Part shown: one piece after another, positions 2,173 through 62,709 of the stretch | How positions within the stretch are numbered: the stretch's first letter is position 1 | Layout: each line of letters opens with the position of its first letter | Assembly (NCBI GenBank): GCA_000091205.1 | Contig: AP006495.2 | Direction: 5' to 3' (one strand) | Length of the DNA stretch: 64,000 nt | Source: Cyanidioschyzon merolae | Lineage: Eukaryota | Notes under the pieces: model-generated | What the model was told of the DNA's origin: nothing | The model's database searches: none | The model's input: the letters and a program-made list of their open reading frames with translations, nothing else | Position numbers and translations under genes: made by a program

Positions 2173-3093
2173 TTAATCTATTTCGCTTGTTGCAAGTCGT
2201 CTCGCGCGATGTGATAACGAAACTGATGGATTCAGGGCGGTAGGATTATCACCTATCTGTCGTAGACTTGGCGACGAACTGGCATGCAAAGCGACTACTG
2301 CGTGTAACTCGGACACTTCGAACGCGTAAGCGAGGTTTCGGAATCTCTGGGCGGCACTGGCGATCAACCGTACTCCGCCTGACTCGTGTTCTGTACCTCT
2401 CCGGAACAGCATTTCCAGCTTTGTTTCAGTGGCGGCGTTTTCCGGCGATCCGGATCGCGCAATGAGCCGTATGCCGCAGAAAGCCATCCGAGCATGATAC
2501 GATTTTGAACAATAGAGGATCGATGCATTTGTCCGCATCCCACCGAAAGCGCGGAGAATGTCGGTGATCAGGCAAGGATAAACGTGCCTGACACAGGGAG
2601 AAACGCTCTCGGCGAACACTTGTTGGAGTGTTCTCTCTATCTGCCGGACTTGATGCAAGAAAGGAAGTACACGTCCCGCGAGACGATCCATGCGCGCCGC
2701 AGACCGAGGCACAGCGGTCTCGTGAGCGTCTGGCTCAAAGCGCATTCGCCACCCTACCCCAGTCACATTGTAAAGCGTGCAACTGGCGACGTATTGAATT
2801 GGGCAGCATACGGAATGATCGACGCTTTCTCTCTCTATCTCCCTCAAGCATCCATAGAGTCCAGAGAGGTATCCTGCTGAGCGATGACAACGATCATCGC
2901 GCCGTAGTTGTTGCAGTTGCGACGAATACGCCCGCGAGATGCTAAGCCTCATCACTGGTTTCGGGCACGACGCAAACGCTGCGGTGAGCTTGCGGCGCGT
3001 GCACCTCGGCTCTCTCCGAGCGCCGCTGTAACCTATACGTTGTGCCGTCCAAACAAATACGTACGGAGCCCAGCTGCCGATGCCTGTCCACAT
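2173..3093 (-). CDS. Hypothetical protein (306-aa ORF, no recognisable domain)
   Basis: Long ORF only. It is partly overlapped by shorter ORFs on the other strand. Confidence 0.25.
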   Translation of the reverse strand: MWTGIGSWAPYVFVWTAQRIGYSGARREPRCTRRKLTAAFASCPKPVMRLSISRAYSSQLQQLRRDDRCHRSAGYLSGLYGCLREIERESVDHSVCCPIQYVASCTLYNVTGVGWRMRFEPDAHETAVPRSAARMDRLAGRVLPFLHQVRQIERTLQQVFAESVSPCVRHVYPCLITDILRAFGGMRTNASILYCSKSYHARMAFCGIRLIARSGSPENAATETKLEMLFRRGTEHESGGVRLIASAAQRFRNLAYAFEVSELHAVVALHASSSPSLRQIGDNPTALNPSVSLSHRARRLATSEID

Positions 3094-17512: not shown

Positions 17513-18973
17513 GTGACAAACGGGAACGAGCGTCGATCACCGGCACCGAGCGCGGCGCGTGTTAGGCGCGTGTCCGGCGCGTGTCCGGCGCGTGTCCGGC
17601 GCGTGTCCGGCACGCGTGCAGCGCGCAGACACCTGCCGTCGACGCGGGCATCGGTGAGCATCACGCTCATCACAGGAACGGTAACCGTGGCATGCGCGCT
17701 CCTGCTTGCTCCAGAGCAGGGCTTTGGACTCCTGGTCATCCAAAAGCTGGGAGCTTGTTGCGTGGTTGTCGCAACCACGGTTGTTCGGCACGTTTGGCGC
17801 CAGCAAAGGCCAGGAACAATGGCCTTCGTTCAGCTCGCTTCGAGGAGAACCGGCGGACGAAACCAGTTCCGGGGTCGCGCTGTGGATAGAACGTTAGCGG
17901 GAGGTGTCAGACACCCGAGCGAACGTGGAACTGTAAAGTTTTCCTCAGGTCTGAGGCTGCAACTTACACCGGGGTTCCCTCATTCCAAGGACACTGGGAG
18001 ATCGGGCCGTAGCGACCGGGAGCCTGCATTTTCCGGGGATGCGGATGCGCTGCGCCTTCCTGCCTTGACCAGGGCAGCGCTATCCTTAGCGCCAGCGCTT
18101 GTAACTGTCAGCGCGCAAGACACGTCTGTATCGAGATCAAAAGCTGGAGGCGCCTCTGGAACAAGTCCGATGAATAGTTCTGCGGTCGCATCGTGGCCCA
18201 GAACTGAGCTCACAACCGCAGCGTTTCGATATACGTTCTATTCACTCGGTTCTAACGATAACTTGTACAAGCAAACGCTACAAGCGGAGATACAATCCAA
18301 ATTAATCCACGTGGGCACGGAGGGCGCAGCCCTGATTGTTCGAGTGGATCCAAGCTATGTAGCCTGGGTAGATGACGCACAAATTACAGAGCCGCGAATG
18401 CCCGGGACGCTCGCGGACAGGGTTGGCGGTCGACCGCTGTCCGCCGATGCGCATCTCAGGGGCGGCTCACCAGGGCCGTACCACGCCACAGAATCGATGC
18501 GCAGTGAATTCGTTGCAGATGTCGAACATGGAACTGGAAGGAAACCACATTTCGACCGAGCAGCGTACAAGCGCCTTGACGAGAACCAACGATCGTCGCG
18601 TCCATGCCCTCGGGCGTTGACGTCACCGTACATTGCGGGCGGTGCGCTCCCTTCGGATGAAGAGGGACTCGCTCAAAGATGCCGACTGTATATCGAAGGC
18701 GAAGTTACGCACGCTCTCCCATGTAATGCATCATTCCATGGCCCAAGTCCGCCCGAGTGTTTTATTGTGCGAGTTTTACGAAGGTGCCAGAACGTGTTTC
18801 GACAGTTTGCGGGAAGCGAACCATGCAGCGCATCTCCAACCACCATCGAGGAGTCTGTCGAGGATTTCTGCATTATGTGTTCAGCCCAGAGAGGGAGTGC
18901 AGAGTGCCGCTCTTTTCCTGCGACGCTGGGTACCGGCATTAACGTGGCGTTGAATGCGCTTAGCGCTACATAG
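17513..18973 (+). CDS. Hypothetical protein. The N-terminal part is doubtful because it overlaps the 11-bp repeat and the copy A boundary.
   Basis: 486-aa ORF with no recognisable domain. The first ~60 aa are low-complexity Arg/Ala sequence generated by the repeat. Confidence 0.25.
   Translation: MTNGNERRSPAPSAARVRRVSGACPARVRRVSGTRAARRHLPSTRASVSITLITGTVTVACALLLAPEQGFGLLVIQKLGACCVVVATTVVRHVWRQQRPGTMAFVQLASRRTGGRNQFRGRAVDRTLAGGVRHPSERGTVKFSSGLRLQLTPGFPHSKDTGRSGRSDREPAFSGDADALRLPALTRAALSLAPALVTVSAQDTSVSRSKAGGASGTSPMNSSAVASWPRTELTTAAFRYTFYSLGSNDNLYKQTLQAEIQSKLIHVGTEGAALIVRVDPSYVAWVDDAQITEPRMPGTLADRVGGRPLSADAHLRGGSPGPYHATESMRSEFVADVEHGTGRKPHFDRAAYKRLDENQRSSRPCPRALTSPYIAGGALPSDEEGLAQRCRLYIEGEVTHALPCNASFHGPSPPECFIVRVLRRCQNVFRQFAGSEPCSASPTTIEESVEDFCIMCSAQRGSAECRSFPATLGTGINVALNALSAT
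17557..17612. repeat. 11-bp tandem repeat (GGCGCGTGTCC)x~4.5
   Basis: 'ggcgcgtgtccggcgcgtgtccggcgcgtgtccggcgcgtgtccggcacgcgtg'. Confidence 0.9.
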
Positions 18974-27762: not shown

Positions 27763-29469
27763 CTAGCTCGAGACCTCCGCCGAGTCGCCACCGCTGAGCC
27801 AGCGCGTGTGCCACCGCCGCCCCGGATCGTCCAGACGCTCGTAGCCGTGCGAGCCGAAGCAATCCCGCTGGGCCTGAACCAGCTGGCTTGAGCGCAGCAC
27901 CGCCTGTCGATACGTGTCGTAGTACGAAAGGCTCGCGGTCAGCGCCGGCGCCGGCACACCCAGCGATGCCGCCAGCCCGACAACACGCCTCCAGCTCTCG
28001 TGGCGACGTCCAATCTCCGCAGCCAGGTCAGCGTCCAGCAGCAGATTCGGCAGGCTGGGGTCTCGTCGAAAAGCGCCCTCGATCCGCTCAAGCAGCTGTG
28101 CCCGAATAATGCAGCCGCCCTTCCAGATGCGCGCAAGCTCCCCGAGATCCAGCGACCAGCCCTGCTCACCGCTCGCTCGCTGCAGCAGACTGAGACCCTG
28201 CGCGTAGCTACAGAGCTTGCTGCAGAAGAGTGCGTCCTCAATAGCAGCGATCAATGCTCGCTCCGCCGATGCATCCGAACGCGACGTCGACGCCGACGCT
28301 CGTACAGAGCCAGACGCTAGGGCGGCGACACGCTCGGGAGCTGTGTCCGGTCCAGTTTCAGCTACAGCGCCAGCGGCTCCGGGTGAGGCACCGGCGGCCG
28401 CCAACTCGGAGGCGTGCCCCGTACCCGAGAGCCGCTCGGGTCCGCGGAGCACCCGCGACGCACGCTCGCGCTCGTCCTTCCGCGCTGAGAGGTAGCGCCC
28501 GTCGAGCGCGGCAGCGATGGTCGGCACCGCCACGCCCCGCCGCAGTGCCTCCGTCATCGTCCACAGGCCAGTGCCCTTGCTCTCACTCCGGTCGAGGATT
28601 TGGTCTACGAGCGCTGGCGCCGACGCTGCCGACGAAGACGTGTCAGGCACGCGTAGAATGCGCGCGGTAATCTCCACGAGGAAGCTTTGCAGGGCGCCCG
28701 CGTTCCACGAGGCAAACACTTCCGCAGCCGCCATCGCATCCAAGCCAACGGCACCCCGAAGCAGGTCGTATGCCTCGCCGATCAGCTGCATATCGCCGTA
28801 CTCGATCCCGTTGTGCACCATCTTCACATAGTTCCCCGAGCCGCCCGGCCCAATGTAGGTAACGCACGGCCCAGAGCCGGGCACCTGCGCCGCAACCTGC
28901 TCCAGCAGCGGCGCAAGCTGCTGGTACGCCTCCCGTGAACCGCCCGGCATCAGGGAAGGCCCGTAGCGCGCACCCTCCTCGCCACCGCTTACGCCCATGC
29001 CTACGTACAGGAGGCCGCGTGCCGCGACAGACGCAGCACGTCGCTCCGTATTCTCGTACCACTCGTTGCCGCCGTCCACGATGATGTCGCCCGGCTCCAG
29101 AACCTCAGCCAGCGCCTCGACGGTTGCGTCGACTGCGCTCCCCGCCTTCACCAGCAGGAATACCCGCCGCGGACGCTTCAGCGAAAGCACAAACGACCGC
29201 AGGTCCGCAAAGCCGGTAACGCTCCCGCTGGCTGTCGTGTCATCTGCCGCGAGCTCCCGCTGCGCCCGCTCAACAGTCTCCGCCGTCCGCGCATACGTTC
29301 GATTGTACACAGAGACTCGCCAGCCGTGCGACGCTAGGTTCAGTGCAAAGTTCTGACCCATGACCGCAAGGCCAATGACACCCGCGTCCGATATTGCGCG
29401 ACCTGCAGGATGTGACGACGCGCTTTCCCGGACAGCACTCGACGGAGACGAGCCCTCCGTCGCAGACAT
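27763..29469 (-). CDS. gnd: 6-phosphogluconate dehydrogenase (decarboxylating). The ORF extends upstream to 29742, which could be a presequence or 5' leader.
   Basis: The Rossmann N-terminus 'IGLAVMGQNFALNLASHGWRVSVYNRT' and the whole downstream sequence are typical of 6PGDH. The start is chosen at 'MSATEG' (Met92 of the 659-aa ORF). The upstream 91 aa are Arg/Ala/Trp-rich and presequence-like. Confidence 0.85.
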   Translation of the reverse strand: MSATEGSSPSSAVRESASSHPAGRAISDAGVIGLAVMGQNFALNLASHGWRVSVYNRTYARTAETVERAQRELAADDTTASGSVTGFADLRSFVLSLKRPRRVFLLVKAGSAVDATVEALAEVLEPGDIIVDGGNEWYENTERRAASVAARGLLYVGMGVSGGEEGARYGPSLMPGGSREAYQQLAPLLEQVAAQVPGSGPCVTYIGPGGSGNYVKMVHNGIEYGDMQLIGEAYDLLRGAVGLDAMAAAEVFASWNAGALQSFLVEITARILRVPDTSSSAASAPALVDQILDRSESKGTGLWTMTEALRRGVAVPTIAAALDGRYLSARKDERERASRVLRGPERLSGTGHASELAAAGASPGAAGAVAETGPDTAPERVAALASGSVRASASTSRSDASAERALIAAIEDALFCSKLCSYAQGLSLLQRASGEQGWSLDLGELARIWKGGCIIRAQLLERIEGAFRRDPSLPNLLLDADLAAEIGRRHESWRRVVGLAASLGVPAPALTASLSYYDTYRQAVLRSSQLVQAQRDCFGSHGYERLDDPGRRWHTRWLSGGDSAEVSS

Positions 29470-30030
29470 GACGGCAGCACCACATACTTGTGCGCGGCGG
29501 CCTCGGAGCAGGCACCAGCGAGCGCTTCGGACCAAGCTCAGGCTCCATGTCGGGTACGTACGCCTGGGTGTCCAGGAGTGCGCACGCGGAGGCGCCCAGC
29601 GTCCGAAGCGCACCGCAGCGACAGGTGCGGCGGCCCAGCACAGCGCCCCGCCACTGGGACTCCGGCGAGTGCCCGCTGTCGTCGCCATCCTTGAGGCGAT
29701 CCACAGGTAGTTTGCGTGACCGAGGGCGGCCGGCCTGTTCACCGGGTGCGCCTCCTCGGTCTGCCGCGCTCTAGACGGGGCAGCGCGCAGCGACTGGCCG
29801 TCTGGTGCTGCTTCCGGGACTCCTCAGCTGCCGATCCTGTGCCCCGGCGCGAGCACTCGGCGACTTGACGTCAGGTGCTCGCTCAAGTCTCTCACGGTCA
29901 CTACGACAACACGCACGCTCAAAAGCTGAGCACAGCGAAAAACAAAACCGATCCGCGATGCACGGGGGTGCTGCAGATCGATGCAGTCCGCGTCACGAGT
30001 TCTCGCAGTTGCACGAATACCACCGACAAT

Positions 30031-37757: not shown

Positions 37758-39107
37758 ATGGATCATAAAGTTGTCGCGTTAAAGTGGGACTCCCGGAGCC
37801 TGCAGTTGAGTCCGCGACCGATCGGAACGTACCTGCGAGCAGACGGCCGACTCGGGCGCCGACGGCGACAAGGTTCCTCCGGTCAGCCTGGTGCAGATTC
37901 AGTGCTTTCTGATGGTGTCTTGGAGGTAGCAAGTTCCAGGTCCGCATTTCTGTCGAAGCATGATACGTCTGCGCTTACATCGGAGGAGGGCACTCGTCGC
38001 CAGCGGGTTTGGAGCTTTGCCTTGCCCCTGTCGCGCCGGCGTTTCTCTGAGGCGGAAGAAGAGGCCCGCGGCTCATCGCTCAAGTCATCTGTCCAGCCCA
38101 GGGCGACTAGGAAGCAGCCGTCGTGGAAGTATTTGGTATCGGGTGCACTTGCTGGCGTCATTTCGCGAACAGCGGTGTCACCGCTTGAGGTCGTCGCAAC
38201 GATGAACATGTCGACTTCGTTGGCGACGCGTAACTTTATCCACGAAATGATTGATATCTTCCGCCGGGAGGGTCTGCCGGGTCTATTCAAAGGAAATCTT
38301 GCGAACTGTCTGAAGGTCGCACCCACAAAAGGCATTCAATTTGTCGTGTTCGAGACCTTCAAAAGGCTGATGGCTCGTCGGCGCCAGTGGTCCCAGGTAC
38401 GCCGAGCAGCGCGCTTCCCCGAGGGCAACGTACTTGTGGAGGAGCTCGATGATATAGAGCTTACAGCTGGTGAGCGCCTGATCGCTGGAGGCATCGCCGG
38501 TATGGGTGCAGCTGTCCTATGTTATCCACTTGAGGTTTCCAAAACGCTTCTGACCGCCGAACCTGGGCGCTATCGGGGCGTGTTCGGAACGCTGCGATCT
38601 CTCGTTCGGGAAAGAGGCTTCCAAGCATTATACCGCGGGCTCGTACCGACGATGATCGCCATGTTCCCGTACGTCGGCCTCGAATTTATGGTGTACGAGC
38701 AGCTCAAAATAACTCTGGCGAATAAGCGTGCTCTAGCTATGGCCGCCGTTGGAAAAGGCCCAGAAGGAGCGTCGCCAAATGCTCGACTCGGACGACAGCC
38801 GTCGAGCGACCAGCTCCCTGTCGGCGTTCTGCTGCTGATTGGAGCGATCGCCGGCACAGTTGCCCAAACGGCCTGCCATCCGCTAGACGTCATACGCAAG
38901 CGATTACAGTTGCAGGGCATTGGCAACCGACCGGTTCAATATAAGAGTATGATCCATGTAGCCCAAGAAATCATTAGAAATGAAGGTGGAGTGCGGGCAT
39001 TGTACAAAGGCCTATCACCGGCAGCAACGAGTGTGTTCCCCAGCGCTGGCGTAAGCTATCTCGTTTACGAATGGTGCAAGAATGCTCTCGGGGCAAAATC
39101 ATTCTGA
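37758..39107 (+). CDS. Mitochondrial-carrier-family protein (SLC25A42/Brittle-1-like) with a ~110-aa N-terminal extension
   Basis: Carrier repeats carry the motifs 'PLEVVATMNM', 'PLEVSKTLLT' and 'PLDVIRKRLQ', with downstream 'ALYRGL'/'ALYKGL' signatures. The N-terminal 110 aa are basic and Ser/Arg-rich. The start is uncertain. Confidence 0.65.
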   Translation: MDHKVVALKWDSRSLQLSPRPIGTYLRADGRLGRRRRQGSSGQPGADSVLSDGVLEVASSRSAFLSKHDTSALTSEEGTRRQRVWSFALPLSRRRFSEAEEEARGSSLKSSVQPRATRKQPSWKYLVSGALAGVISRTAVSPLEVVATMNMSTSLATRNFIHEMIDIFRREGLPGLFKGNLANCLKVAPTKGIQFVVFETFKRLMARRRQWSQVRRAARFPEGNVLVEELDDIELTAGERLIAGGIAGMGAAVLCYPLEVSKTLLTAEPGRYRGVFGTLRSLVRERGFQALYRGLVPTMIAMFPYVGLEFMVYEQLKITLANKRALAMAAVGKGPEGASPNARLGRQPSSDQLPVGVLLLIGAIAGTVAQTACHPLDVIRKRLQLQGIGNRPVQYKSMIHVAQEIIRNEGGVRALYKGLSPAATSVFPSAGVSYLVYEWCKNALGAKSF

Positions 39108-43188: not shown

Positions 43189-45609
43189 ATGGAGCTTGTT
43201 GTCACGAGAGACGGTTTCGGTGACTCCGAACAGAGCACGCCGCTCACCGCGGTGCGTCCAGACACTACCTGTAACGAGGACGTTGACGAGGTCACTGGCC
43301 AGGTAGGGCCAGCTCCTGCGAGCGAACCAGAAAAGTTTTGGGTACATCTAGGCCAGCTCCTCGGAGCCTTTGGAAGTTTTAGAGTTTTAACTGAATTTTT
43401 GCACCGGTTTCTGGAGGCCGAGGCCTCCATCGCCGGAACCGCATCACATAGCACTAGCGCACCATGTTCGTGCACTGAGGCAGTACGTTCGGCAGGACAG
43501 CACGCATCTTCGCAATCGTGTTGTATGCATGGAACTGGATCTCGGTTTAGAATGTCGCTACGAAGGTACAGAAACTGGCTTGTGCCGCTCACTGCTTGCG
43601 ATCTTGAAAACGAGTTGGACGCAATATCCCCCGAGCCAGCGGCAGCGCGCCTGGGGAACACGGCTCCTTTGTATAGTGCAGGTCAAGAGAACCCATCCGC
43701 TCAGATATCCGATGTTTTTATACAGAAAAAGGCTCGTAACCGATATTTGCAGTGGGTTCGCTTACGTGCTTGGCTTCAAGAAAGGCTCATATCGTGTGCG
43801 CATATGCGTTTGCCTTCCTTTGCGCCGCGGTGGAGCGAATTCTCGATGGAAAACTTGCCTTCTTTTGAGAACATTCGAAAGAGCTTGTTTTTAATGAATT
43901 GGCGGTGCATGTGGAGTTCATTACCTGAGTCAGCGGTTACCGTTGGCACGCGCCGACCTGCAGATCACCGGGACTCGCTTATCTTCACCTGCTGGTTCAG
44001 CAAAAAGGATACGATTACCGAGAAATCCTGCAGGAAGAAACGACTTTGGTCGAGTAGGTTGCTGTGGAGAGCGCAAACTACAAACGATGGATTCACTCGT
44101 ATCCATGGTGCGACGAGGAGCTCGCGATGTTCTGCTTCGGAATCAGTACCAAAATCCGCTGAGCTGGACAGGGATGCGAATACGAGCGAACGCATGTGCG
44201 ATGGCGATCCCACACCTCCACAACCTGCATCGGTAGCCATGCATTCTTCACCACAGGTGCAGCACGAACAGGAGGATGCACGACAGCTGCGGTGGCTGTA
44301 TCGCTTGCCATGGACACAGAGAAAATGGATATGGTGCGAAACGGATGAGAGCACGCACCCTGGAGCAGAGGGCTCTCGTGCCACCGGAAACAACCAGAAT
44401 GCACGCAGCATCGAGACATGGCGAGTGCTGGATAGCCTTTCTCTCGATCTGAATCGCGTCTCAAGTTGGCTGACAGCACGTCGCTTATCTTCGACTTTTG
44501 AGGAGTGGGATGCGGACGAGGAGCCGCCACTGGATCCATCTGCTCCCCTAATCATTTCAGCAGCGCGGAGTTCAACTGCAGAAGACGACAGCCCGCGCTT
44601 TAACTTGTTGCACGGGGTCACGGAGACAGCAGCAGATACGCAGGAATCAATACAAGCAGACACGCAACTGGACGCTGCGAATCATCACCAGGGAAACTCG
44701 CCGGGATCGTTGCGCAGCGCCTCAGCGGGGCAATCGCGAATGCGCATGGAATTCACGAGCGACGAACATACTGTATTTCAGGACGATTCCTCGGCGAGCG
44801 GATCCAGGGTGCCTAGGCACTTGCGGGAACCCATTCAGCGGCTTACAATGAATCTGCACTTTCTATTGGATAACCCGCACCTGAACGTAGCCCCGTATGA
44901 ACGCCTTGCGAACATGGGTAGCTCTAGTTTTGACGACCTCTCCGCACTGGATCACGCTCAACGCCATCTGGGAAACGTGGAGAATCTGCGGACCCACAGC
45001 GGACTCGACCCTGAGACCATCGAGAGATACACGCTCGTCGGCTCTGTAACCGAAGAGGGAATCCCAGTCATCGGGACCTTGAATCCGGGGCCGCTAGACC
45101 TAGAACACTCCTCTACATGGAACTCGAATGATGACTCAGGTGCTGACAATGCAAATCAGGTAACTAGAATGGCATCAGACGCCGCTCGCGTTAGCGCTCC
45201 CGGCGAATGCTGCTGCGTCGTCTGTCTGGAGCCAATGCGCCGAGCGGAGATAGTTCGAATTCTGCCGTGCTGCCATTTTTATCACAAAGATTGTGTGGAT
45301 CGCTGGCTCCAACGGCATAAGCGGTGCCCCGTTTGCAATGGTGACATCGAACAGCTAGCGCTCGCTTTCTCTGATCCGAGTGCCGGCTGCGACAGCGGCA
45401 CGCAGGGCGCCAACGGATCAGCGCGGGTGGCTATCCGCGGAGGCCATGCGGCGTCCCGTCGTGATCGACTGAGGCGGCGCTACCGTGCTGGGGATCGAGC
45501 TCCGAGTCCTGCGCTCTTTTTTCCGAACGAGGACCCGCTGGATCTCATTGAAGCAGATGGCGCCTGGTGGGACTGGTTCCAAGGCCCAGCGCCGCACGAG
45601 CTTGAATGA
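43189..45609 (+). CDS. RING-H2 finger E3 ubiquitin-ligase-like protein (large, mostly low-complexity N-terminus)
   Basis: The C-terminal 'CCVVCLEPMRRAEIVRILPCCHFYHKDCVDRWLQRHKRCPVCNGDI' has C3H2C3 RING-H2 spacing. Confidence 0.7.
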   Translation: MELVVTRDGFGDSEQSTPLTAVRPDTTCNEDVDEVTGQVGPAPASEPEKFWVHLGQLLGAFGSFRVLTEFLHRFLEAEASIAGTASHSTSAPCSCTEAVRSAGQHASSQSCCMHGTGSRFRMSLRRYRNWLVPLTACDLENELDAISPEPAAARLGNTAPLYSAGQENPSAQISDVFIQKKARNRYLQWVRLRAWLQERLISCAHMRLPSFAPRWSEFSMENLPSFENIRKSLFLMNWRCMWSSLPESAVTVGTRRPADHRDSLIFTCWFSKKDTITEKSCRKKRLWSSRLLWRAQTTNDGFTRIHGATRSSRCSASESVPKSAELDRDANTSERMCDGDPTPPQPASVAMHSSPQVQHEQEDARQLRWLYRLPWTQRKWIWCETDESTHPGAEGSRATGNNQNARSIETWRVLDSLSLDLNRVSSWLTARRLSSTFEEWDADEEPPLDPSAPLIISAARSSTAEDDSPRFNLLHGVTETAADTQESIQADTQLDAANHHQGNSPGSLRSASAGQSRMRMEFTSDEHTVFQDDSSASGSRVPRHLREPIQRLTMNLHFLLDNPHLNVAPYERLANMGSSSFDDLSALDHAQRHLGNVENLRTHSGLDPETIERYTLVGSVTEEGIPVIGTLNPGPLDLEHSSTWNSNDDSGADNANQVTRMASDAARVSAPGECCCVVCLEPMRRAEIVRILPCCHFYHKDCVDRWLQRHKRCPVCNGDIEQLALAFSDPSAGCDSGTQGANGSARVAIRGGHAASRRDRLRRRYRAGDRAPSPALFFPNEDPLDLIEADGAWWDWFQGPAPHELE

Positions 45610-46722: not shown

Positions 46723-47862
46723 TTGACTATGACAGAGGAGGAAATAACAGCTCTTGTGATCGATAATGGTTCTGGGATGGTGAAAGCGGGTTTCGCGGGA
46801 GACGACGCGCCCCGTGCAGTTTTCCCATCCATAGTGGGACGTCCGCGACACCAAGCAGTCATGGTTGGCATGGGGCAAAAAGACTCTTATGTGGGCGACG
46901 AAGCGCAGTCGAAACGCGGTATCCTATCGCTCAAGTACCCGATCGAGCACGGCATCGTAACGAACTGGGATGATATGGAAAAGATCTGGTACCACACTTT
47001 TTACAACGAGTTGCGCATCTCCCCCGAGGATCATCCAGTGTTGTTAACCGAAGCACCTTTGAACCCGAAAGCCAACAGGGAAAAAATGACCCAGATCATG
47101 TTCGAGACGTTCAACGTTCCCGCGATGTACGTCGCGATCCAGGCAGTATTGTCGTTGTATGCTTCGGGGCGCACCACGGGTATTGTCGTCGACAGCGGCG
47201 ACGGTGTGACGCACACTGTGCCCATCTACGAAGGCTATGCCTTGCCGCATGCTATCATGCGCATAGATCTGGCTGGACGAGACCTAACCGACTATCTCGC
47301 CAAGATCCTTACAGAGCGCGGATATTCATTCACGACGACAGCCGAACGAGAGATCGTGCGAGACATCAAGGAAAAATGTTGTTATGTGGCACAGGACTAC
47401 GATCATGAGTTGGAGATTGCCTCATCGCAGCCGGCGAAAATCGATAAGCAGTATGAACTCCCCGACGGACAAATCATCACGATTGGGAGTGAGCGTTTCA
47501 GATGCCCGGAGGTGCTCTTCCAGCCGTCCTTGATCGGTATGGAGGGCGAGGGTATTCATAATGTTGCTTATCAGAGCATCATGAAATGCGATGTCGACAT
47601 CCGGAAAGATCTGTACGCAAACGTGGTTCTCAGCGGCGGCACGACGATGTTCCCAGGCATCGCGGATCGGATGCAGCGGGAACTCGCTAGTGTTGCACCA
47701 TCTTCGGTGAAGATCAAGCTTGTAGCGCCAGCGGAGCGCAAATATAGCGTGTGGATCGGCGGCAGCATTTTGGCCTCGTTGAGCACTTTTCAGCAGATGT
47801 GGATTAGTAAGGCGGAGTATGACGAGTTCGGACCCTCTGTGGTACACCGCAAATGTTTCTGA
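46723..47862 (+). CDS. ACT: Actin (intronless)
   Basis: Full-length 379-aa actin: '[34 protein letters not shown]...', '[22 protein letters not shown]', and the C-terminal '[38 protein letters not shown]' equivalent. Confidence 0.97.
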
Positions 47863-49510: not shown

Positions 49511-52500
49511 ATGGAGCGACGAGCGAGTGGCTCGCGAGCGCCATTGACTCCAGTACAGCCTGTTAGCGAAGATGTGCCGCAAAGCCGGGGGAGAACTCCC
49601 GAAGAAACCCGACAGACAACACCAGAGCGTGCCCTGAAGCGTGCGCTTTCACCGACTTTCTCCGAGAAGACTACGAAAAGCAAGACAAATTCAATCCATA
49701 GTTCGAAAAACAAGCGAGTCTCCTTCGGAGGTCAGGAAGTGAAGTTCTACGAACGTCATGAGTTTGAGTGGTCTTCGCCGCCGGCACCGTCCCCGTCGAG
49801 GCGTCAGTCTCTGGAGCCGCAGGGAGACCACGCATATCCCGGTGTTGCGTCGTCGAGCTTTGCAGGGCGCGTTTCGAACACGCCCAGCGCTTATGAGCAC
49901 GAACCGAATGTGCGTGCCGCAGCAGCAAAGACGCATACTGGAAACAACACACTAGACGCGCCTAGTCCGCATCGTGACCTGCCGCACTTGCTCGCGACTG
50001 CATGCCCGACTGTGGGGTCGATGGAGAGCGACGACGACAACACGATACAGAGCGGCTCCAGTCTGAGCGAAGCGACGCTAGCGCAAGTGGCCTACGGAAT
50101 CAGATCCTATGCCTCCGGCGCCGCAGATGATGCAACGTCTTCAACGAATGAGGACGACTCGCTTCAGTACCGAGAACGTTTCAGCGGAAGCAGTGAGGGC
50201 CTCAGCCTGTTCATGGATGAAGACATCACGAAAGCAGTCGGACATCCGCGCATGTCGATGCCTCTGACTGGGACGACGTCCCTAACGAGGAGCGTCACGC
50301 GAACGCTGCTAACCGGGGGCGAGCGCTTCGGCCGGCGGGCTTCGCTCAGCCGGCCACCTCTGCCGCGCCCTCGGCGATCTTCAAGGCTATCGACCGGCTC
50401 GTGGCGTGCAACGAGCAACGTTGACTATCAGGGAACAACGAGGGGGAATCGGCGGGACTCGATCGATGATAATATTACTGGCAAGGTGCCTTCGCTGGCT
50501 GCTCTCATCGACGCTGACTCGGAAGAAACTGCTGTAGGAGATCGCTCGCGCGAGCGCTTCGCCCATGAAACCGATGCGGGGGACAACATACGCCCGTCGT
50601 CCACACCTGGCAAGCTTCGCTACGAGGACGAGCCCCCGAAGTTCCCAAGCATCCAGGAGGGAAGCTCGTCCCAAGAGCCTTCGCTTTCTCATCACAGCGA
50701 CTCGGGCAGGAATTGTGCGAACAGCGAGGATACGCCACGGTGGCGATCATTATGGTCGACCGATATTCGTGATGCTCAACTGGGGATCGTCGCGAACACA
50801 TCGCCCACGGTAGCGACTTGCGTTCCCCCAAGGAAAGAGTCCAATTCACCGATAGCCGGTTCAATATCTGAGGTGCAGCGAGACGAGGAATCTGGTGGTC
50901 TCACGACGGTTCCGGAAACCAGTGCCCTCCTTGAAGACATAACAGGACAGGTGCCGAGGCTAACTGCCCTGATAGACGAAGACAACGAGATATCTGATTT
51001 GCATCTTCAGCAAATGCCACAGGGAAACGGGAACAGTCAAATCAGTGTACATGGGGGCGTTTGCCGCGTAGCGTCCGAACAGGCGAACAGTGCGTCTAGG
51101 TCCTTCGCGGCCGACACAAAGAGTCCGGCCCTGTCGCCGGACCTGACGGCTCGAGACTTGATTCCGCAGCAGAGCGAGAGCCCCCAGCGGCGGGTCACTT
51201 TGGGATCCGTCGGTGCCCCGATTCAACAAAGTACTCGTAGTATGCACGGATTCGATACGAGTACAAGTGTTGCACGGCGTCGATCGTTGGCAGCTAGCGT
51301 TCGACGACTGAGCATGAAAGCGTCGCTTGTGCAGACGCTTTCTGCATCCAAAGAGATACACTTGCGAGAAGTCCATTCGGGAATGAAAGCGAATTCGCAT
51401 TCGAAGTTGGGTGCCTCGCCAGAGGCCGAACCACTCGGCCGAGTCCTGCAAGAACGATACAGTAACCAGATAGTGCGTCTGGAGCGGGATCCTAATGAAA
51501 CAGCGAAAACTGTCGTAGCGACTCAGAGCAGTACGATTGGCAAAGGTGCACCGCGAGATGACACGGGGCTCGAAAGCTCTTCGCTTCCCGCGTCAGAGGC
51601 GTCCGTCGCTTCCGCGCCGGGAAACGCTGTATTCAAGGATTTCCTCTATGCGGCTGGGGTCAGATTCCTCGACGATCTCTCTACGAGGAGGCGCATCACC
51701 TCTTTTGGGGTTCCCAGCAACCGAATATGTGTACAGCCGGATTCGCTCGAACAGCACATCAGAGTCGCCTGCATAACAGTCGCTCTGCTTGGCGCATTTC
51801 AATATTCATGTGAAGTGCTCGCATCAGAGAATGGAAAGCTCGCCACTGAAATCGCGAAAGCTGAGGAGGAATTCCGTACCCGTTGGCTCTTTACGCGGCT
51901 CATTGAGCTCCACTTTTCTGGCTCAGAACCGAATCTACTGACTCGATACCAGCTGCAACTCAAACGATTGAAAAACGTTGGCCGTCTTCGAGCTCGTTGC
52001 GAGTGGTATCTCTGGCGAGCGCGGCACGAGCAACGGATTCAGGTACAGCTCAGAGCCCAACAGGAAAACCTGCAGAACGATCTCGCCCAACTCTGCGGAC
52101 TAGCAGAGAACCTGCGCGCCACGATCTCTGCTGCCACTGAGGATGCGATCACCAGTGGACTGGGGCAGCTCTCCACGGACCCAAAACTCGTACACGAGCG
52201 AAACCTCCACAACCAGAATACTTTACGACACGTCGAAGAGCGCGATGCTCAAATTCAGGAAACACGCTCGCGCCTCGAGCAGCTCCATCACGAACTCAAC
52301 CGGCTTTCTGAACACAAGGCCCAGCTCGCAACCGAATGCCTCGCTTTGCGAACTCGGCACCAGGAGCTCCAGGCAAAGGCTCGTCTCGGCGATGCAGCGA
52401 GCTGCTCGTTAATGCTCGCTGAACAACAGGACTCATTTGATATCCTGGTGTCGTTGACGGCCTGCCGACCGATTTCTATTTCGAACGACACGCTGTGTGT

Positions 52501-53185
52501 CCGTGTCGGGTCTACCGTAGACATTCGATGTTCTTTTGTCCAAGAGAAAATGCCTTCCGACGCATGCGGTTCACTCGTCCTCAACAATGTTCAGGCGTGT
52601 GGCGTGACGCCTCCAAACGAGGCAACGGAAGCGCCGATTCTCATCGAGCGTGTAGCGCAAGCCGTTGTCGCATCGTTTACAGCACAGCAGCGAGAGCACT
52701 TCAGCGTGATGCGAGCCATCTCCGGGAGGCCCCTTTGGCAACTGCGCTGGGTCCTATTCGCCGTCGCTAGAGCAGTAACTGAACTCCAGGCTCTCCTCCG
52801 CAATATTAGCATATGGAAGCGGACCAAGCCATATGAAGTTGAATATCGGGAGTCCCATGATCACGCTGGCCTTGTGCATGCACTCTTTTCTGATATAACG
52901 AAACATATTCGTGTTGAGGTCATCCTCAAGCTAGAGCCGGCATCTCAGGCACTGTGCGGAATCCAGCTTCGCCTGCACGACATTGTTTGGCACCTTCCGA
53001 ACCGCTGCGAGCGACTCTCAGCGTCGTTCGTGGCCATCATATCGAACAACTTGGAACAATGGGCACGACGAGAACAAGACGTTGAAGTTGCACCGCCAGC
53101 ACAACACGTGCGACTCGCAGCGCTTATCGAGACCACCCTCGACGCAGTAGCGCAGACCCTGCAAGAAGCTCGACACGCTCCGTAA
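49511..53185 (+). CDS. Large coiled-coil protein, a candidate KNL1/Spc7-family kinetochore scaffold
   Basis: The N-terminal 'NSIHSSKNKRVSFGGQEVKFY' resembles a degenerate SILK motif followed by an RVSF PP1-docking motif. Three '(D/E)xIT' MELT-like repeats are present: 'MDEDITKAVG', 'IDDNITGKVPSLAALIDADSEE' and 'LEDITGQVPRLTALIDEDNE'. The C-terminal third is coiled coil ('LQNDLAQLCGLAENLRATI', 'IQETRSRLEQLHHELNRLSEHKAQLATECLALRTRHQELQAKARL'). Confidence 0.5.
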   Translation: MERRASGSRAPLTPVQPVSEDVPQSRGRTPEETRQTTPERALKRALSPTFSEKTTKSKTNSIHSSKNKRVSFGGQEVKFYERHEFEWSSPPAPSPSRRQSLEPQGDHAYPGVASSSFAGRVSNTPSAYEHEPNVRAAAAKTHTGNNTLDAPSPHRDLPHLLATACPTVGSMESDDDNTIQSGSSLSEATLAQVAYGIRSYASGAADDATSSTNEDDSLQYRERFSGSSEGLSLFMDEDITKAVGHPRMSMPLTGTTSLTRSVTRTLLTGGERFGRRASLSRPPLPRPRRSSRLSTGSWRATSNVDYQGTTRGNRRDSIDDNITGKVPSLAALIDADSEETAVGDRSRERFAHETDAGDNIRPSSTPGKLRYEDEPPKFPSIQEGSSSQEPSLSHHSDSGRNCANSEDTPRWRSLWSTDIRDAQLGIVANTSPTVATCVPPRKESNSPIAGSISEVQRDEESGGLTTVPETSALLEDITGQVPRLTALIDEDNEISDLHLQQMPQGNGNSQISVHGGVCRVASEQANSASRSFAADTKSPALSPDLTARDLIPQQSESPQRRVTLGSVGAPIQQSTRSMHGFDTSTSVARRRSLAASVRRLSMKASLVQTLSASKEIHLREVHSGMKANSHSKLGASPEAEPLGRVLQERYSNQIVRLERDPNETAKTVVATQSSTIGKGAPRDDTGLESSSLPASEASVASAPGNAVFKDFLYAAGVRFLDDLSTRRRITSFGVPSNRICVQPDSLEQHIRVACITVALLGAFQYSCEVLASENGKLATEIAKAEEEFRTRWLFTRLIELHFSGSEPNLLTRYQLQLKRLKNVGRLRARCEWYLWRARHEQRIQVQLRAQQENLQNDLAQLCGLAENLRATISAATEDAITSGLGQLSTDPKLVHERNLHNQNTLRHVEERDAQIQETRSRLEQLHHELNRLSEHKAQLATECLALRTRHQELQAKARLGDAASCSLMLAEQQDSFDILVSLTACRPISISNDTLCVRVGSTVDIRCSFVQEKMPSDACGSLVLNNVQACGVTPPNEATEAPILIERVAQAVVASFTAQQREHFSVMRAISGRPLWQLRWVLFAVARAVTELQALLRNISIWKRTKPYEVEYRESHDHAGLVHALFSDITKHIRVEVILKLEPASQALCGIQLRLHDIVWHLPNRCERLSASFVAIISNNLEQWARREQDVEVAPPAQHVRLAALIETTLDAVAQTLQEARHAP

Positions 53186-54070: not shown

Positions 54071-55501
54071 ATGCGGTTCGGCGGAGGCAGAGCGTCGCGC
54101 AACAAGTCGCGGACGTGGTCCCGTTCCCGATGGCGGCGGCGGAAACGCTCGGTGTACGCGCAGTCGTACCGCGGCGGTGGCGAGGGCACGTCCGCTGCTG
54201 TGGGGCTCCTGGACGTCACGAACCGGGACCGTGGTCTCTATGTTTTACGCATGCCTCGCTTTCTCGGCGAGATTCTTGACAAGTGCGCTGAGAGGGAGTT
54301 GCAGGCTGCTGTCGAACTGGGAACGGGGGCAAAAACCGCGCTACCGCCTGGAACGGGGACGGTCATCGGGCGCCTACGTGTCAGCTCCGCCCTGAAACCT
54401 TTTGAAGACGGGGCAGTCAGTTCCCACGAGGCTGCCCGAGCACCGAATTCGGGCAACGTTGTTGCGCAGGTGATCCTCGATGAACCGGTTCTTCGGTCAC
54501 ATGTACCAGAGAGTTGGGAAGAGGCCGCATCAGATGCAGTTGAACGGAACCAAATTCCAACGAGATACGATCTTCGGATATACGAAGAGAATCCTAACAT
54601 GCAAGTCTTTTCAATAGACTCAAGCGATCCATACGCGCCTGCACGGCTTGAAGGGACGGTTCTAAGCATCGGTGGTCTGCAGCCTCGTCTGGATGACGCA
54701 TTGCGAGCAATGCACCGCCGTCGTGCAACGATGCATCAGACAACGGTACGCAAAGCGGGTAAGCGAATTCGATCCATCTCTGACGCTGACCTGCGCCAAG
54801 AAGAGCTGAAACGTCTTCGCCCTGATGCAGAATCGCAACCGGCACTCGTCTCCGGACTGATGGCGAGATCCGCAAGCAAAGCTAGTGGCGAAACACCGGT
54901 TTCCGGTCCGGCATTCATTGGCGTACGGAGAGCGGCGCAGGAAATAGAGTCTCAGTTCGCGCGTCAGATCGAGAACCGCCTGCAGACGCGATTACTCAGG
55001 CGGGACGCCAGCTCCCGGGCTATTGTTGACGCAAAAGATGAAAATGAATGGCGTGAGTCCGTCACGACGCGCGTTTTCCGTCTCTTCGAGGAGCAGTTCT
55101 GGTGGCGCCTTCAGGACCTGGCGGAGAACTTACAGATCCCGGCAGCGCGATTGAAGCCAGTCATCTCTGAGCTGTGTGATTATAACCAACGTGGACCATA
55201 TCGAGGAATGTACAGCTTGAAAGATCATCTGAAGACCGAGAATCAGCGAGCGATGATGGATACACTCTTCCAGCGTCGCGCGGCCGAACTGGAAGCCGCT
55301 CGTCGCGAACGGGACCAGGAGCGGGAGAACCGTCGCCGTGAACGCGAAGCTGTAGAGCGTGCGGCGAAACGTGCACAGCTCGTTGCAGAATCCGATTATG
55401 TGGATTCTCTTATCCAGCGAGACGGCGAAACGGACCTGGGAGAGCGCCAGGACGGTGACGATGGGGAGGCATCGGATGTCGACTACCTGGATGAATCGTG
55501 A
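54071..55501 (+). CDS. General transcription factor TFIIF beta subunit (RAP30/Tfg2-like). The N-terminal boundary is uncertain.
   Basis: 'LYVLRMPRFLGEILDKC' resembles the TFIIF-beta N-terminal 'WLVKVPKYL' block. The C-terminal 'VFRLFEEQFWWRLQDLAENLQIPAARLKPVISELCDYNQRGPYRGMYSLKDHL' matches the TFIIF-beta winged-helix 'LFKLFE..YW.LK.L...T.QP...LKE.L..IA......GPY...Y.LKPEY'. An acidic C-terminal tail follows. Confidence 0.7.
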   Translation: MRFGGGRASRNKSRTWSRSRWRRRKRSVYAQSYRGGGEGTSAAVGLLDVTNRDRGLYVLRMPRFLGEILDKCAERELQAAVELGTGAKTALPPGTGTVIGRLRVSSALKPFEDGAVSSHEAARAPNSGNVVAQVILDEPVLRSHVPESWEEAASDAVERNQIPTRYDLRIYEENPNMQVFSIDSSDPYAPARLEGTVLSIGGLQPRLDDALRAMHRRRATMHQTTVRKAGKRIRSISDADLRQEELKRLRPDAESQPALVSGLMARSASKASGETPVSGPAFIGVRRAAQEIESQFARQIENRLQTRLLRRDASSRAIVDAKDENEWRESVTTRVFRLFEEQFWWRLQDLAENLQIPAARLKPVISELCDYNQRGPYRGMYSLKDHLKTENQRAMMDTLFQRRAAELEAARRERDQERENRRREREAVERAAKRAQLVAESDYVDSLIQRDGETDLGERQDGDDGEASDVDYLDES

Positions 55502-57676: not shown

Positions 57677-59974
57677 GTGAGCAGCGGTACCATGCACGCC
57701 TCCCATAAAGTGAACCACTTCTTAAAATATCTGGTTCTGACATTTGCTTTCGTTGTGTTGTGTTCCCTTCAGCCGAAAAGGCCTTGTGGTGGCAGCGATG
57801 TTGTTCGATTGCGTGCCTATCAACGAAACTATGGAAAGCTTCAGCCGCTTCACCTCACTGTGCGTCCTGGACACGTTCTCACCTCTTGTCGACACTTCTG
57901 TACAGATGAAGGCGTTTGTCGACCAATCAAGTTCGAGCAAAGGCGCTTGCGATTTCTGGAAAAGTTCTGTGGCGAACAGCGTGTTGCGCTGAGCGGCCCG
58001 GCTCTGCTGTTTCTCAAGCCTTCGCGCTTTACGCTGCAGTGTTCGAAAACCGCGAACTCTTTTGAGGTGCTATCCCAGGGTCCTATGTGGCTCGATGTGC
58101 ACCGCGTAAGGATGATGAGTGGAACGGATAGTCCCACAGCGGTAAGCCAGCACACGCGAGCATCTCCTGCTAACACGGGACCTTTCGATACCAATCGATT
58201 TCGTCGGGAAAACGCGAGCTCAGAACTCCTAGTTCATTATGTCTCAGATCCGCTAAGTGTGGGAGAGTCGCGATATTTCGTATCTCACATCGAGTTTCGG
58301 ATTTCGCAGCTACCAGAGGTGCACGACGCTATGCGGAACGCATCCGCTGGAAACCGTAACTCGGCTCAGGCGGTCTCTGTTAGATTCGTGCCAACGGATC
58401 CGAACAAGGATCCGCGCCCTTACCTAGTCGACCCTGTCATGAGTCGGCAAGTGGTGCACGCGTGGTCCTGCGGCAATGAGGCAGCGAGCCGCAAGTTGCA
58501 AGCCTGCGCGCATTACATACCACAACGGCGCTCCGTGGGCGAACTCGCTTCTCTCTGGATGCTCATCCTCGGTGTCATCATCTTAGCTGGCCAGAATCAT
58601 TATCGGGGCGCCCGGCGGGAGTCCCCGAGATCACTCAAGAGCACTCCACAGGGTCATAACTGGTCCCGCATCTCGCGGCAGAGGGCGTCATCGCTTGATG
58701 ATGGCGTCCATCACATCCCTGTCGACTGCGAGCACGGGGTTCATCGGGGTCTTGATCGACCGGGGTCGACCGTTGCGCGTGCTTCGCACGTTTCCGACAC
58801 CTCAAAACCTCTGGAATCTGCAAGTGCTTTCGGGGTATCCACTGCGAATACCATCGAGGCTCCTCGCGATTCTGATATGCATGCGACATGTGCCCGAATC
58901 CCCACTCCAGCATGGGCGTCGCGCACTTTCCTCATTTTGTTTCTCATCCTGCAGAATTCTGCAATGGCGTTTTTCTACTTTATTGGTATTTTTTGTCCTC
59001 CCTCCTCTTGTGTGAAGCTTGTCGCGATCGATGTAGCCACGGCACTGGCATGCAGCGTTGGTGCCGCTTGCTGCACAGAGCTCTGGAGTCTCGTCTGCTG
59101 GATCGACTGCGAAAGCGGCAACGAGCGGGCCAGTATCGGCGAGGCCCAGGATGTACCTCTCGAAAAAACGCCTCCGGATGTGTCTGCACATGCCGCGAAT
59201 GTTGAACCTATTGCTGCGAGCGTTTCCAACGGGAAGCGCGCGCCCCTCACGGACAATTATTCACCTGGGGCGGGTTCGGCTGAGCCTTGGAACGAGTCCG
59301 CTAGCAAAGGCAGCATCTTCCGTACGCAGTGCGGTGCGCTGCCGCGTCTTGCAGCGAGACACTCGGAACGACTGCGACTTCTGGAGCGACTCAATTTCAA
59401 TCCGCTCATGCTGTGGTTTTTTCGAATTTTTCAGTGGAAACGCTCCACTTTTTGGTTGATACGGGATACAAATATCATACCATGCTGGTTTACGGGCCCA
59501 GTTATATACTATTTGGGCTTGCGCCTGTTGATCACGCTGTTGCTTTGGAGTGGAGAGCCTTCGCGCCCGGAGGCACTGTTCGTTAACCTCCAAGCCATGA
59601 TTCCAGTTTTCTTGGGGTCAAGTTTAGGTGCAAAAGTCGCCCGTTCGATTCGCTCCAGACAAGTTCCTAGGTGGTTCTCAAAGGTGCAACAAACGGAAAT
59701 CTTCCAAGTTTCACCCGCGCGCATACTGCAGGTATGGTTTCTCGTTGATGTGCTTCTCAACGGCTGGTTTTATCCCGGTGCGGGTAGACCGTTACCGTTT
59801 ACACTGATTTTTCGTTTGCCGCGGGCCTGTGCCGGTGATTTTTTGGACAATTTAACAGAGTATTCGAACAGTGATGAAAAGTTATACCTGGCTGCCTATC
59901 AGCTTTTGCCTTGGTACGGTTGGAATGCTATATGCAAACTTTTTGCGGCCTTGGTTCTTTTCGTGGAGGCTTGA
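57677..59974 (+). CDS. Hypothetical multi-pass membrane protein
   Basis: 765-aa ORF with several hydrophobic segments ('LVLTFAFVVLCSL', 'LWMLILGVIILAG', 'FLILFLILQNSAMAFFYFIGIF', 'LAAYQLLPWYGWNAICKLFAALVLFV'). No family recognised. Confidence 0.4.
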   Translation: MSSGTMHASHKVNHFLKYLVLTFAFVVLCSLQPKRPCGGSDVVRLRAYQRNYGKLQPLHLTVRPGHVLTSCRHFCTDEGVCRPIKFEQRRLRFLEKFCGEQRVALSGPALLFLKPSRFTLQCSKTANSFEVLSQGPMWLDVHRVRMMSGTDSPTAVSQHTRASPANTGPFDTNRFRRENASSELLVHYVSDPLSVGESRYFVSHIEFRISQLPEVHDAMRNASAGNRNSAQAVSVRFVPTDPNKDPRPYLVDPVMSRQVVHAWSCGNEAASRKLQACAHYIPQRRSVGELASLWMLILGVIILAGQNHYRGARRESPRSLKSTPQGHNWSRISRQRASSLDDGVHHIPVDCEHGVHRGLDRPGSTVARASHVSDTSKPLESASAFGVSTANTIEAPRDSDMHATCARIPTPAWASRTFLILFLILQNSAMAFFYFIGIFCPPSSCVKLVAIDVATALACSVGAACCTELWSLVCWIDCESGNERASIGEAQDVPLEKTPPDVSAHAANVEPIAASVSNGKRAPLTDNYSPGAGSAEPWNESASKGSIFRTQCGALPRLAARHSERLRLLERLNFNPLMLWFFRIFQWKRSTFWLIRDTNIIPCWFTGPVIYYLGLRLLITLLLWSGEPSRPEALFVNLQAMIPVFLGSSLGAKVARSIRSRQVPRWFSKVQQTEIFQVSPARILQVWFLVDVLLNGWFYPGAGRPLPFTLIFRLPRACAGDFLDNLTEYSNSDEKLYLAAYQLLPWYGWNAICKLFAALVLFVEA

Positions 59975-61257: not shown

Positions 61258-62709
61258 TCATTTTGCTGCTGCTGGTGCTGCTGTTATCGAAGTCGGATTA
61301 GCCTTCGACTCGGAATCGCCGGTCGCCTCATGCAGTTTGTCGAGCATGCCGCGCATGCCGACCTCAACATCACTCAAAGCTCGCTTCAAAAAGCTCTCCA
61401 CTTGTGCCTTGTACTCTTCGGGATGCACTTTGAAATGTGTGGCATGTTGGCTCTGTTCCCAAACTTTTTGGTAGACCTCCAGCCCCCGACGTCTCTGAGC
61501 ATCGATGTACTCACGCACGCTCTTGTCAAGGTCTTTCACAATGCTGTCATCGAGGCTGTAGAGGTAGAGTTGCGGAACGGATGGGAGTTGCACGTTTTGC
61601 AGGGCGTGTTCCGCTGCCCGGAAACCCTCAGCAACATTCAGAAATCGAAACAGAGCTTCCGCAACAGCATTCCAGACACGGTACCCCACTTTTGGACAGG
61701 CTGCATAGAGACCTTGGGCTAGAGAACTCGCCTGCATGTGTCCTGGTCCCGAATCGAATATCACTCCTCGGATCTGCCGCTGGAGTTTTCGACCCATATC
61801 CTCTGTGACGTACTGGCCCCGCTGAATGATGTCTAGCATATAGCCGTAGATTCCTGTGCCAATAGAAAACGAATGGACCACTATCGGTCTATTTTCAGGG
61901 ATTTCGTCCATTAAATGTAGCACACGCAGTGCTTGTCGTCGCGAGAAGGCCGGAATCAACGCCGTCTGGAGACCATTAAACAACGTGATCACATCGTAGC
62001 CACGGTCTCTGTACCACTCTGCGTATTTCACCATATGTCGCTGCTGTGCACCGAGCCACGACAACAAAATAACAACGGGTCGTTGCGAGTCGCCAACAAA
62101 GGCTGCTGCATCTACGACGGAGCCCGCAACGTGCCTCCTCGTATGCGGATTTTCATTGAATTGCGTCGCCAGTAGTACCGTCCCGAACAGAGAAGCACGG
62201 AGACATTCCGGGTTTGTGTCACCTAGTCTTCGCCAGATACAGAAGAGCAAGGCCCCCAGTTGCGTCAGAAGCGAGAGTGGTCCATTCTCGTCGTTCCCGT
62301 CTGGTCTTTCGTTACGACCTCGGCCGCCGTCGCTACCACCGCCGCCGCCGCTGTGGCCACTGTTGCCGCCGTATCCTCCACCACATAAACTTGCTAACGG
62401 GCTCTCAGTCCCAGATGCGGATCCTTGCGTCCACACTTTCGGGTTAAACGGCAAAGAAGCACGTTTTCGCTCTAGCACAGTGCAGAGGGCGTGACTCCGA
62501 GGTTCTTCAGCAGAACGTTGTACGACGTGACAGCGCGGAAGCGTTGCAAAGCTCGTTCCTGACCTCGCTCGCCGAACACTGGTGCAGTTCCTCCTCCTAA
62601 TCAAAAACTTCTCTGAAGATACAGCCCCCGAAGGAGTGAATGCGACTCGCAAACACGCCATTCGCACAAAGACCTCGGCTTTCACGGAACAGAGCACTGT
62701 CGCTGTCAA
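61258..62709 (-). CDS. TMEM53/DUF829 family protein (alpha/beta-hydrolase-like) with a Gly-rich N-terminal region
   Basis: 'PVVILLSWLGAQQRHMVKYAEWYRDRGYDVITL', 'IVVHSFSIGTGIYGYM', 'VIFDSGPG' and 'PQLYLYSLDDSIV' parallel TMEM53 '[33 protein letters not shown]', 'FHVFSNGG', 'IFDSAPG' and 'ELYLYSRADEVV'. Confidence 0.75.
   Translation of the reverse strand: MTATVLCSVKAEVFVRMACLRVAFTPSGAVSSEKFLIRRRNCTSVRRARSGTSFATLPRCHVVQRSAEEPRSHALCTVLERKRASLPFNPKVWTQGSASGTESPLASLCGGGYGGNSGHSGGGGGSDGGRGRNERPDGNDENGPLSLLTQLGALLFCIWRRLGDTNPECLRASLFGTVLLATQFNENPHTRRHVAGSVVDAAAFVGDSQRPVVILLSWLGAQQRHMVKYAEWYRDRGYDVITLFNGLQTALIPAFSRRQALRVLHLMDEIPENRPIVVHSFSIGTGIYGYMLDIIQRGQYVTEDMGRKLQRQIRGVIFDSGPGHMQASSLAQGLYAACPKVGYRVWNAVAEALFRFLNVAEGFRAAEHALQNVQLPSVPQLYLYSLDDSIVKDLDKSVREYIDAQRRRGLEVYQKVWEQSQHATHFKVHPEEYKAQVESFLKRALSDVEVGMRGMLDKLHEATGDSESKANPTSITAAPAAAK

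Follow-up and report, generated by a model that had tools for sequence, protein, structure and literature searches.

Kinetochore proteins of the KNL1/Spc7/Spc105/CASC5 family (PF08317 and PF18210; human structures 4NF9, 8PPR and 8Q5H; yeast structure 9S4Q) share an overall plan, in which a disordered N-terminal half carrying an RVSF motif and threonine-centred acidic repeats is followed by a helical Spc7 domain, then by a coiled coil, and at the C-terminus by two RWD domains in tandem. In human KNL1, protein phosphatase 1 (PP1) is bound by RVSF (amino acids (aa) 58-61) together with SILK (around S25), and Aurora B switches both motifs off; the N-terminal placing of RVSF is said to have been kept strictly in the evolution of KNL1 (PMC6715587). 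The repeats of the Galdieria sulphuraria protein (GSUL006022) were taken as MELT-type by Tromer et al. 2015 (PMC4558858), who remarked on a conserved proline at position +4 from the threonine.

We analyzed a stretch of 64,000 nucleotides from contig AP006495.2 (assembly GCA_000091205.1) of the red alga Cyanidioschyzon merolae, hereafter the window. It contains the gene CMM239C, whose product had been proposed, in an original prediction made on this DNA, to be the kinetochore scaffold of the organism. CMM239C presents the same overall plan as the family (table 1) and our results agree with this proposal: judging from sequence comparisons and structure models, we estimate at about 0.92 the probability that CMM239C is the KNL1/Spc7/Spc105 ortholog, a protein that serves the KMN network as its large scaffold at the outer kinetochore. 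The protein is assigned to the family because it combines an Spc7 domain, a predicted tandem RWD fold, a conserved RVSF motif and identity with a published KNL1 sequence.

Identity and Domain Organization of CMM239C

The predicted protein of 1224 aa was recovered as a frame without interruption on the + strand. An in-frame stop lies five codons 5' of the ATG, and the start codon is sound because the N-terminus MER...PLTPVQP is conserved in the homologs. The translation is identical over 1224/1224 residues to Cyanidioschyzon_merolae_CMER002329_Knl1 (Knl1.fa of Dataset EV1), which van Hooff et al. 2017 (EMBO Rep 18:1559; PMC5579357) listed as the Knl1 of C. merolae, so that the KNL1 assignment is already in the literature. 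The databases label the protein as "Spc7 kinetochore protein domain-containing protein" (UniRef100_M1VIS4) and as "hypothetical protein CYME_CMM239C" (GenBank, strain 10D). Its nearest homologs belong to Cyanidiales red algae: a JGI protein with 99% identity is followed by proteins with 39%, 39% and 32% identity, one of the two 39% homologs being that of Cyanidiococcus yangmingshanensis.

The two parts of the protein differ in composition: aa 1-700 present 33-43% of S/T/P/G and few hydrophobic residues, and the opposite was observed for aa 700-1224. The Pfam Spc7 model (PF08317) matches CMM239C with 61.5 bits (E = 8.8e-17), well above its curated gathering cut-off of 34.5, whereas Knl1_RWD_C (PF18210) reaches 25.4 bits over aa 932-1069, just below its cut-off of 27.8. 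The remaining Pfam matches are weak coiled-coil families at about aa 901-955. When the PDB was searched by sequence, yeast Spc105 was the sole significant match, from a structure of the KMN junction (9S4Q; E = 8.7e-5 with the single sequence; E = 2.2e-5 with a profile). An exhaustive HMMER search with a C-terminal profile of CMM239C yielded 78 matches among 1.84 billion representatives; all ten of the relatives that were scanned carry Pfam Spc7 and two of these ten also carry Pfam MELT_2. A word-indexed profile search with the C-terminal alignment added one distant Spc7 protein only. The profile comparison suggested for the original prediction thus points to the KNL1/Spc7 family.

We further modeled the C-terminal half with AlphaFold2 (AF2). 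The model of aa 700-1224 is of low confidence overall (predicted local distance difference test, pLDDT, of 56.5) and presents three long helices (aa 746-801, 809-881 and 891-959) ahead of two beta4-alpha-alpha units. The same topology was predicted twice in a model restricted to aa 956-1224 (pLDDT 73.9; predicted template modeling score, pTM, of 0.70), which supports the presence of the RWD domains anticipated at the C-terminus. A Foldseek comparison of the aa 700-1224 model against the PDB placed the C-termini of human KNL1 on top (8ppr_K, E = 2.2e-5, then 4nf9_B, 4nfa and 8q5h_K), with CENP-P next and yeast Spc105 lower down. The predicted tandem RWD of CMM239C therefore appears closer to solved KNL1 C-termini than to other RWD proteins. 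A long coiled coil had been predicted at the C-terminus: the coiled coil itself is supported by the helices of aa 746-959, but it is not C-terminal, since about 265 residues of predicted tandem RWD fold come after it. The clearest zipper is formed by five successive leucines at one heptad position (aa 925-953; direct count of the register); a Fourier test for heptad periodicity flagged nothing in CMM239C at the threshold chosen.

Motifs of the Disordered Region

The RVSF motif predicted near the N-terminus was confirmed. The residues K68-Q75 (KRVSFGGQ) are invariant in 5/5 aligned Cyanidiales sequences, and Galdieria presents KRVSFGGSQ. Shuffling the first 120 aa of CMM239C produces RVSF in approximately 0.1% of cases.

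Human KNL1 possesses 19 repeats. CMM239C presents far fewer: its threonine-centred MELT-like elements in the disordered region comprise two full repeats, a copy that has decayed and an MDEDIT motif on its own. Both full copies follow the form [DEN]-[IV]-T-x2-Φ-P-x-L-x2-L-Φ-x2-D, and when the N-terminal 700 aa were shuffled 200,000 times this strict pattern never arose. In the repeat, conservation continues for 13 residues past the threonine, and the conserved part resembles, from its sequence, a short amphipathic helix. Acidic or amide residues occupy positions -2/-3 of the repeat threonines; such a phospho-site context, which the original prediction had singled out for examination, fits the preference of Mps1.

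The repeats of CMM239C keep their positions across homologs. The three more distant Cyanidiales homologs carry three full copies, the middle of which aligns with aa 405-421 of CMM239C; two sister species have it intact as (S/N)DIT(Q/R)K(I/V)P(S/T)L..LLQ(D/E)D. We consider aa 405-421 to be a decayed copy because it no longer shows the proline and leucines of these intact homologs, nor the context of their threonine. Judging from the alignment, C. merolae has lost one of three ancestral KNL1 repeats, a small example of the repeat turnover described for KNL1 by Tromer et al. 2015 (PMC4558858).

The original prediction had counted three repeats, but only two of them hold as copies of the same unit (aa 319-338 and 474-493). 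What had been taken as the first copy is a separate motif, FMDEDITK(A)VGHPRMS, with its core FMDEDITK at aa 234-241. This motif has only the D-I-T core in common with the longer repeats and is conserved independently of them, as FMDEDVTK in sister taxa and FFMDEDVSK in Galdieria. Other blocks are conserved within the disordered region (table 1). Two of them, RRASLSRPPLPR and RRRSLAASVRRLS, are basic and contain serine, and resemble in sequence the sites of basophilic kinases (Aurora/PKA-type). Neither block corresponds, to our knowledge, to a named KNL1 motif.

Comparison with Algal KNL1 Proteins

The KNL1 of Galdieria shares with CMM239C the KRVSFGG and FFMDEDVSK motifs, the RRKSIAANVKRLS block, and the Spc7 and C-terminal domains. 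Its repeats, EITEKIPKLNDLLGED and EITKSIPSLRMLMEED, are built on the same unit as those of CMM239C, with the proline at +4 from the threonine. Over their whole BLASTP alignment (357 aa; E = 5e-20) the two proteins are 25% identical, and they are highly diverged. The two species also differ in Bub3, which is catalogued for the Galdieria genome (GSUL006261) but not for C. merolae in Dataset EV1. In the KNL1 of the green alga Bathycoccus prasinos, the tail that follows the threonine or serine of the repeats (TTSVIPSMANLVEEDE, ITEAVPSMSRLLDEDE, VIPSMANLVEEDE and AVPSMSRLLDEDE) is like that of CMM239C, although the residues ahead of the threonine differ and the likeness was read by eye from a published FASTA file. 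These sequences suggest that the repeat may be an old Archaeplastida-type KNL1 repeat.

Proposed Function and Alternative Readings

By analogy with the KNL1 of yeast and animals, the C-terminal tandem RWD would dock on the Mis12 complex, through the Nsl1/Dsn1 tails, and the helices ahead of it would pair with the ortholog of Zwint-1/Kre28. The KRVSF motif would recruit PP1 for as long as its serine is unphosphorylated, leading to checkpoint silencing. Within the MELT-like motifs, T240, T323 and T478 lie in acidic contexts that would suit Mps1 and, once phosphorylated, might recruit a MadBub of the Bub1 type. Partners of KNL1 are listed for C. merolae in Dataset EV1 (PMC5579357), with kinetochore orthologs (Mis12, Nnf1, Nsl1, Dsn1, Zwint-1, Ndc80, Nuf2, Spc24 and Spc25) as well as checkpoint orthologs (MadBub, Mps1, Mad1 and Mad2). 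The recruitment of MadBub is the least certain of these steps because no Bub3 ortholog is catalogued for the species.

Several observations weigh against this reading. CMM239C differs from known members of the family by the lack of a credible SILK and, in its repeats, of a Met at -3 and of the SHT and T-omega modules. A degenerate SILK-like motif had been predicted shortly ahead of RVSF, but the candidate, SIHS, is unconvincing: we did not accept it because the sister taxa present only SIVG, SIIG or SSFG N-terminal to RVxF and Galdieria nothing comparable, so that SILK ([GS]IL[KR]), and its basic fourth position in particular, was found in no homolog examined. The failure of this motif does not exclude CMM239C from the family, since SILK is not universal in KNL1. 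Unlike the canonical M-E-L-T, the repeats have no hydrophobic residue at -3, and the Pfam MELT_2 model gave no match in the protein. The alignments underlying our AF2 models comprise four sequences only, and the helical region is modeled with low confidence. As for Bub3, Bub3.fa of Dataset EV1 contains no entry for C. merolae, whereas Galdieria, Cyanophora and green algae have one, and no protein named Cyanidioschyzon or Cyanidiococcus appeared among the best 120 of 1270 matches to Galdieria Bub3 in a large protein collection. Five Galdieria proteins head these best 120, and the rest are ordinary eukaryotic Bub3 sequences with scores of 247 bits or above. A typically conserved C. merolae Bub3 was therefore not seen in the best 120 of 1270 matches, which does not prove its absence, and our literature search found no explicit statement on Bub3 in Cyanidioschyzon. 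That CMM239C would instead be another double-RWD kinetochore or coiled-coil protein (CENP-O/P-like, Mad1-like or Csm1-like), or a generic coiled coil with motifs arisen by chance, is hardly credible: such identities are effectively refuted by the Pfam Spc7 match, by the Spc7 domain of all ten relatives scanned and by the predicted RWD fold.

Taking CMM239C as a KNL1 ortholog, two possibilities can be considered for its repeats. Bub3 may have been overlooked, or may have diverged, in the Cyanidioschyzon lineage; alternatively, the repeats are read differently there, which we consider unlikely. Under the second possibility, the repeats would not be docking sites for Bub3: red algae of the Cyanidioschyzon type would have lost Bub3 and yet kept the KNL1 repeats in position and sequence, to be read directly by another module, such as the TPR of MadBub acting on the helix-like tail of the repeat, or to serve another function. 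Such a loss is only a slim prospect. It would account for the missing entry in the data of van Hooff et al. 2017 and for the missing Bub3 of the Cyanidioschyzon type in the 120 best of 1270 matches, although a 2013-era proteome set and a look at the best matches are weak evidence that a gene is absent. The missing Met at -3 and the 13-residue conserved tail with its helix-like character also point in this direction, and PMC10996584 provides a precedent in C. elegans, where phospho-motifs of KNL-1 are read through a TPR. However, Galdieria possesses both the same type of repeat and Bub3, which indicates that the repeat is compatible with reading by Bub3, and the decay of one of three copies in C. 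merolae would also fit a relaxed constraint.

Table 1. Position of CMM239C, of its motifs and domains, and of neighboring genes in the 64-kb window
Feature	Residues (aa)	Position in the window	Strand	Remarks
KNL1/Spc7 gene CMM239C		49511..53185	+	Complete intronless open reading frame (ORF), 1224 aa; BAM81078.1 / XP_005537114.1
SIHS, SILK-like candidate	61-64	49691..49702	+	Degenerate; 8 residues ahead of R69
KNKRVSFGGQEVKFY	66-80	49706..49750	+	RVxF-type PP1-docking motif (RVSF, aa 69-72), then conserved hydrophobic/aromatic stretch
DDDNTIQSGSSLSEATLAQVAYG	174-196	50030..50098	+	Conserved acidic/Ser-rich block of the disordered region
FMDEDITKAVGHPRMSMPLT	234-253	50210..50269	+	Solitary conserved MELT-like motif, M-D-E-D-[IV]-[TS]; distinct from the longer repeat
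RRASLSRPPLPR	275-286	50333..50368	+	Basophilic-kinase-type site (putative), then proline-rich motif; R276, S278 and R281-P285 invariant
DDNITGKVPSLAALIDADSE, repeat copy 1	319-338	50465..50524	+	MELT-like [DEN][IV]T, Pro at +4, then L-x2-L-Φ-x2-D
SEDTPRWRSLWSTDIRD, decayed repeat copy	405-421	50723..50773	+	Aligns with intact SDITQKIPSLHRLLQDD and NDITRKVPTLDRLLQED of sister taxa
LEDITGQVPRLTALIDEDNE, repeat copy 2	474-493	50930..50989	+	Full repeat
RRRSLAASVRRLS	589-601	51275..51313	+	Conserved basic/phospho-acceptor block; in Galdieria FRRKSIAANVKRLS / RRKSIAANVKRLS
Pfam Spc7 domain (PF08317)	709-873	51635..52129	+	Starts with the family-typical F-x-D-F-L-x3-G-V-R-F-L-D
Long predicted helices / coiled-coil region	746-959	51746..52387	+	AF2 model, heptad count, weak Pfam coiled-coil matches at aa 901-955
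First RWD domain (predicted)	~962-1070	52394..52720	+	Helix, four strands, helix; overlaps the sub-threshold Knl1_RWD_C match at aa 932-1069
Second RWD domain (predicted)	~1074-1222	52730..53176	+	Helix, four strands, two helices
Mitochondrial carrier		37758-39107	+	
RING-H2 finger protein		43189-45609	+	
Actin gene		46723-47862	+	Pfam Actin, 501 bits; ~1.6 kb upstream of KNL1
TFIIF-beta-like protein		54071-55501	+	
DUF829 protein		61258-62709	-	

Genomic Surroundings

The window is a gene-dense and intron-poor eukaryotic region with a GC-content of approximately 55%. Long ORFs without introns at such a GC-content would at first bring to mind a kinetoplastid, with its unconventional kinetochores; this origin was rejected because the homologs of CMM239C are from Cyanidiales and the protein is identical to one of C. 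merolae 10D. Its housekeeping genes encode Nup54, mitochondrial carriers, a PI-kinase, 6-phosphogluconate dehydrogenase (6PGD), a SWIRM/Myb protein, a RING finger protein, actin, TFIIF-beta and a DUF829 protein. The neighbors of KNL1 are unrelated to it and give no hint of a functional cluster. The ORF called for actin begins at TTG; the true start is probably an ATG giving a Met at residues 1-3 (MTMTEEE...).

A local peak of GC-content was observed at 28001-30000 (0.67 vs. ~0.55 elsewhere), over the 659-aa ORF of 6PGD (27763-29742, - strand). The C-terminal domain of 6PGD matches in two separate stretches of this ORF, which suggests that a GC-rich segment may have been inserted. Three further ORFs gave no Pfam match: one of 765 aa (57677-59974, + strand) at 1e-3, and two of 486 aa (17513-18973, + strand) and 306 aa (2173-3093, - strand) at 1e-5. 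Judging from its sequence, the 765-aa ORF seems to contain several hydrophobic segments.

Implications

The KNL1 orthology of CMM239C has been published and its name is partly in the databases, so that our analysis carries little weight as a discovery. Its practical gain is a corrected map of the motifs of the protein, which places the PP1 motif, a MELT-like motif standing alone, the two intact repeats with the decayed one, and the predicted tandem RWD. It also raises a testable question, namely what reads the KNL1 repeats of C. merolae, given that no Bub3 is catalogued for this species, which is amenable to homologous recombination. If the repeats were indeed read without Bub3, unlikely as we judge this to be, the Cyanidioschyzon lineage would provide a naturally Bub3-independent link from KNL1 to the checkpoint in a genetically tractable, minimal eukaryote.

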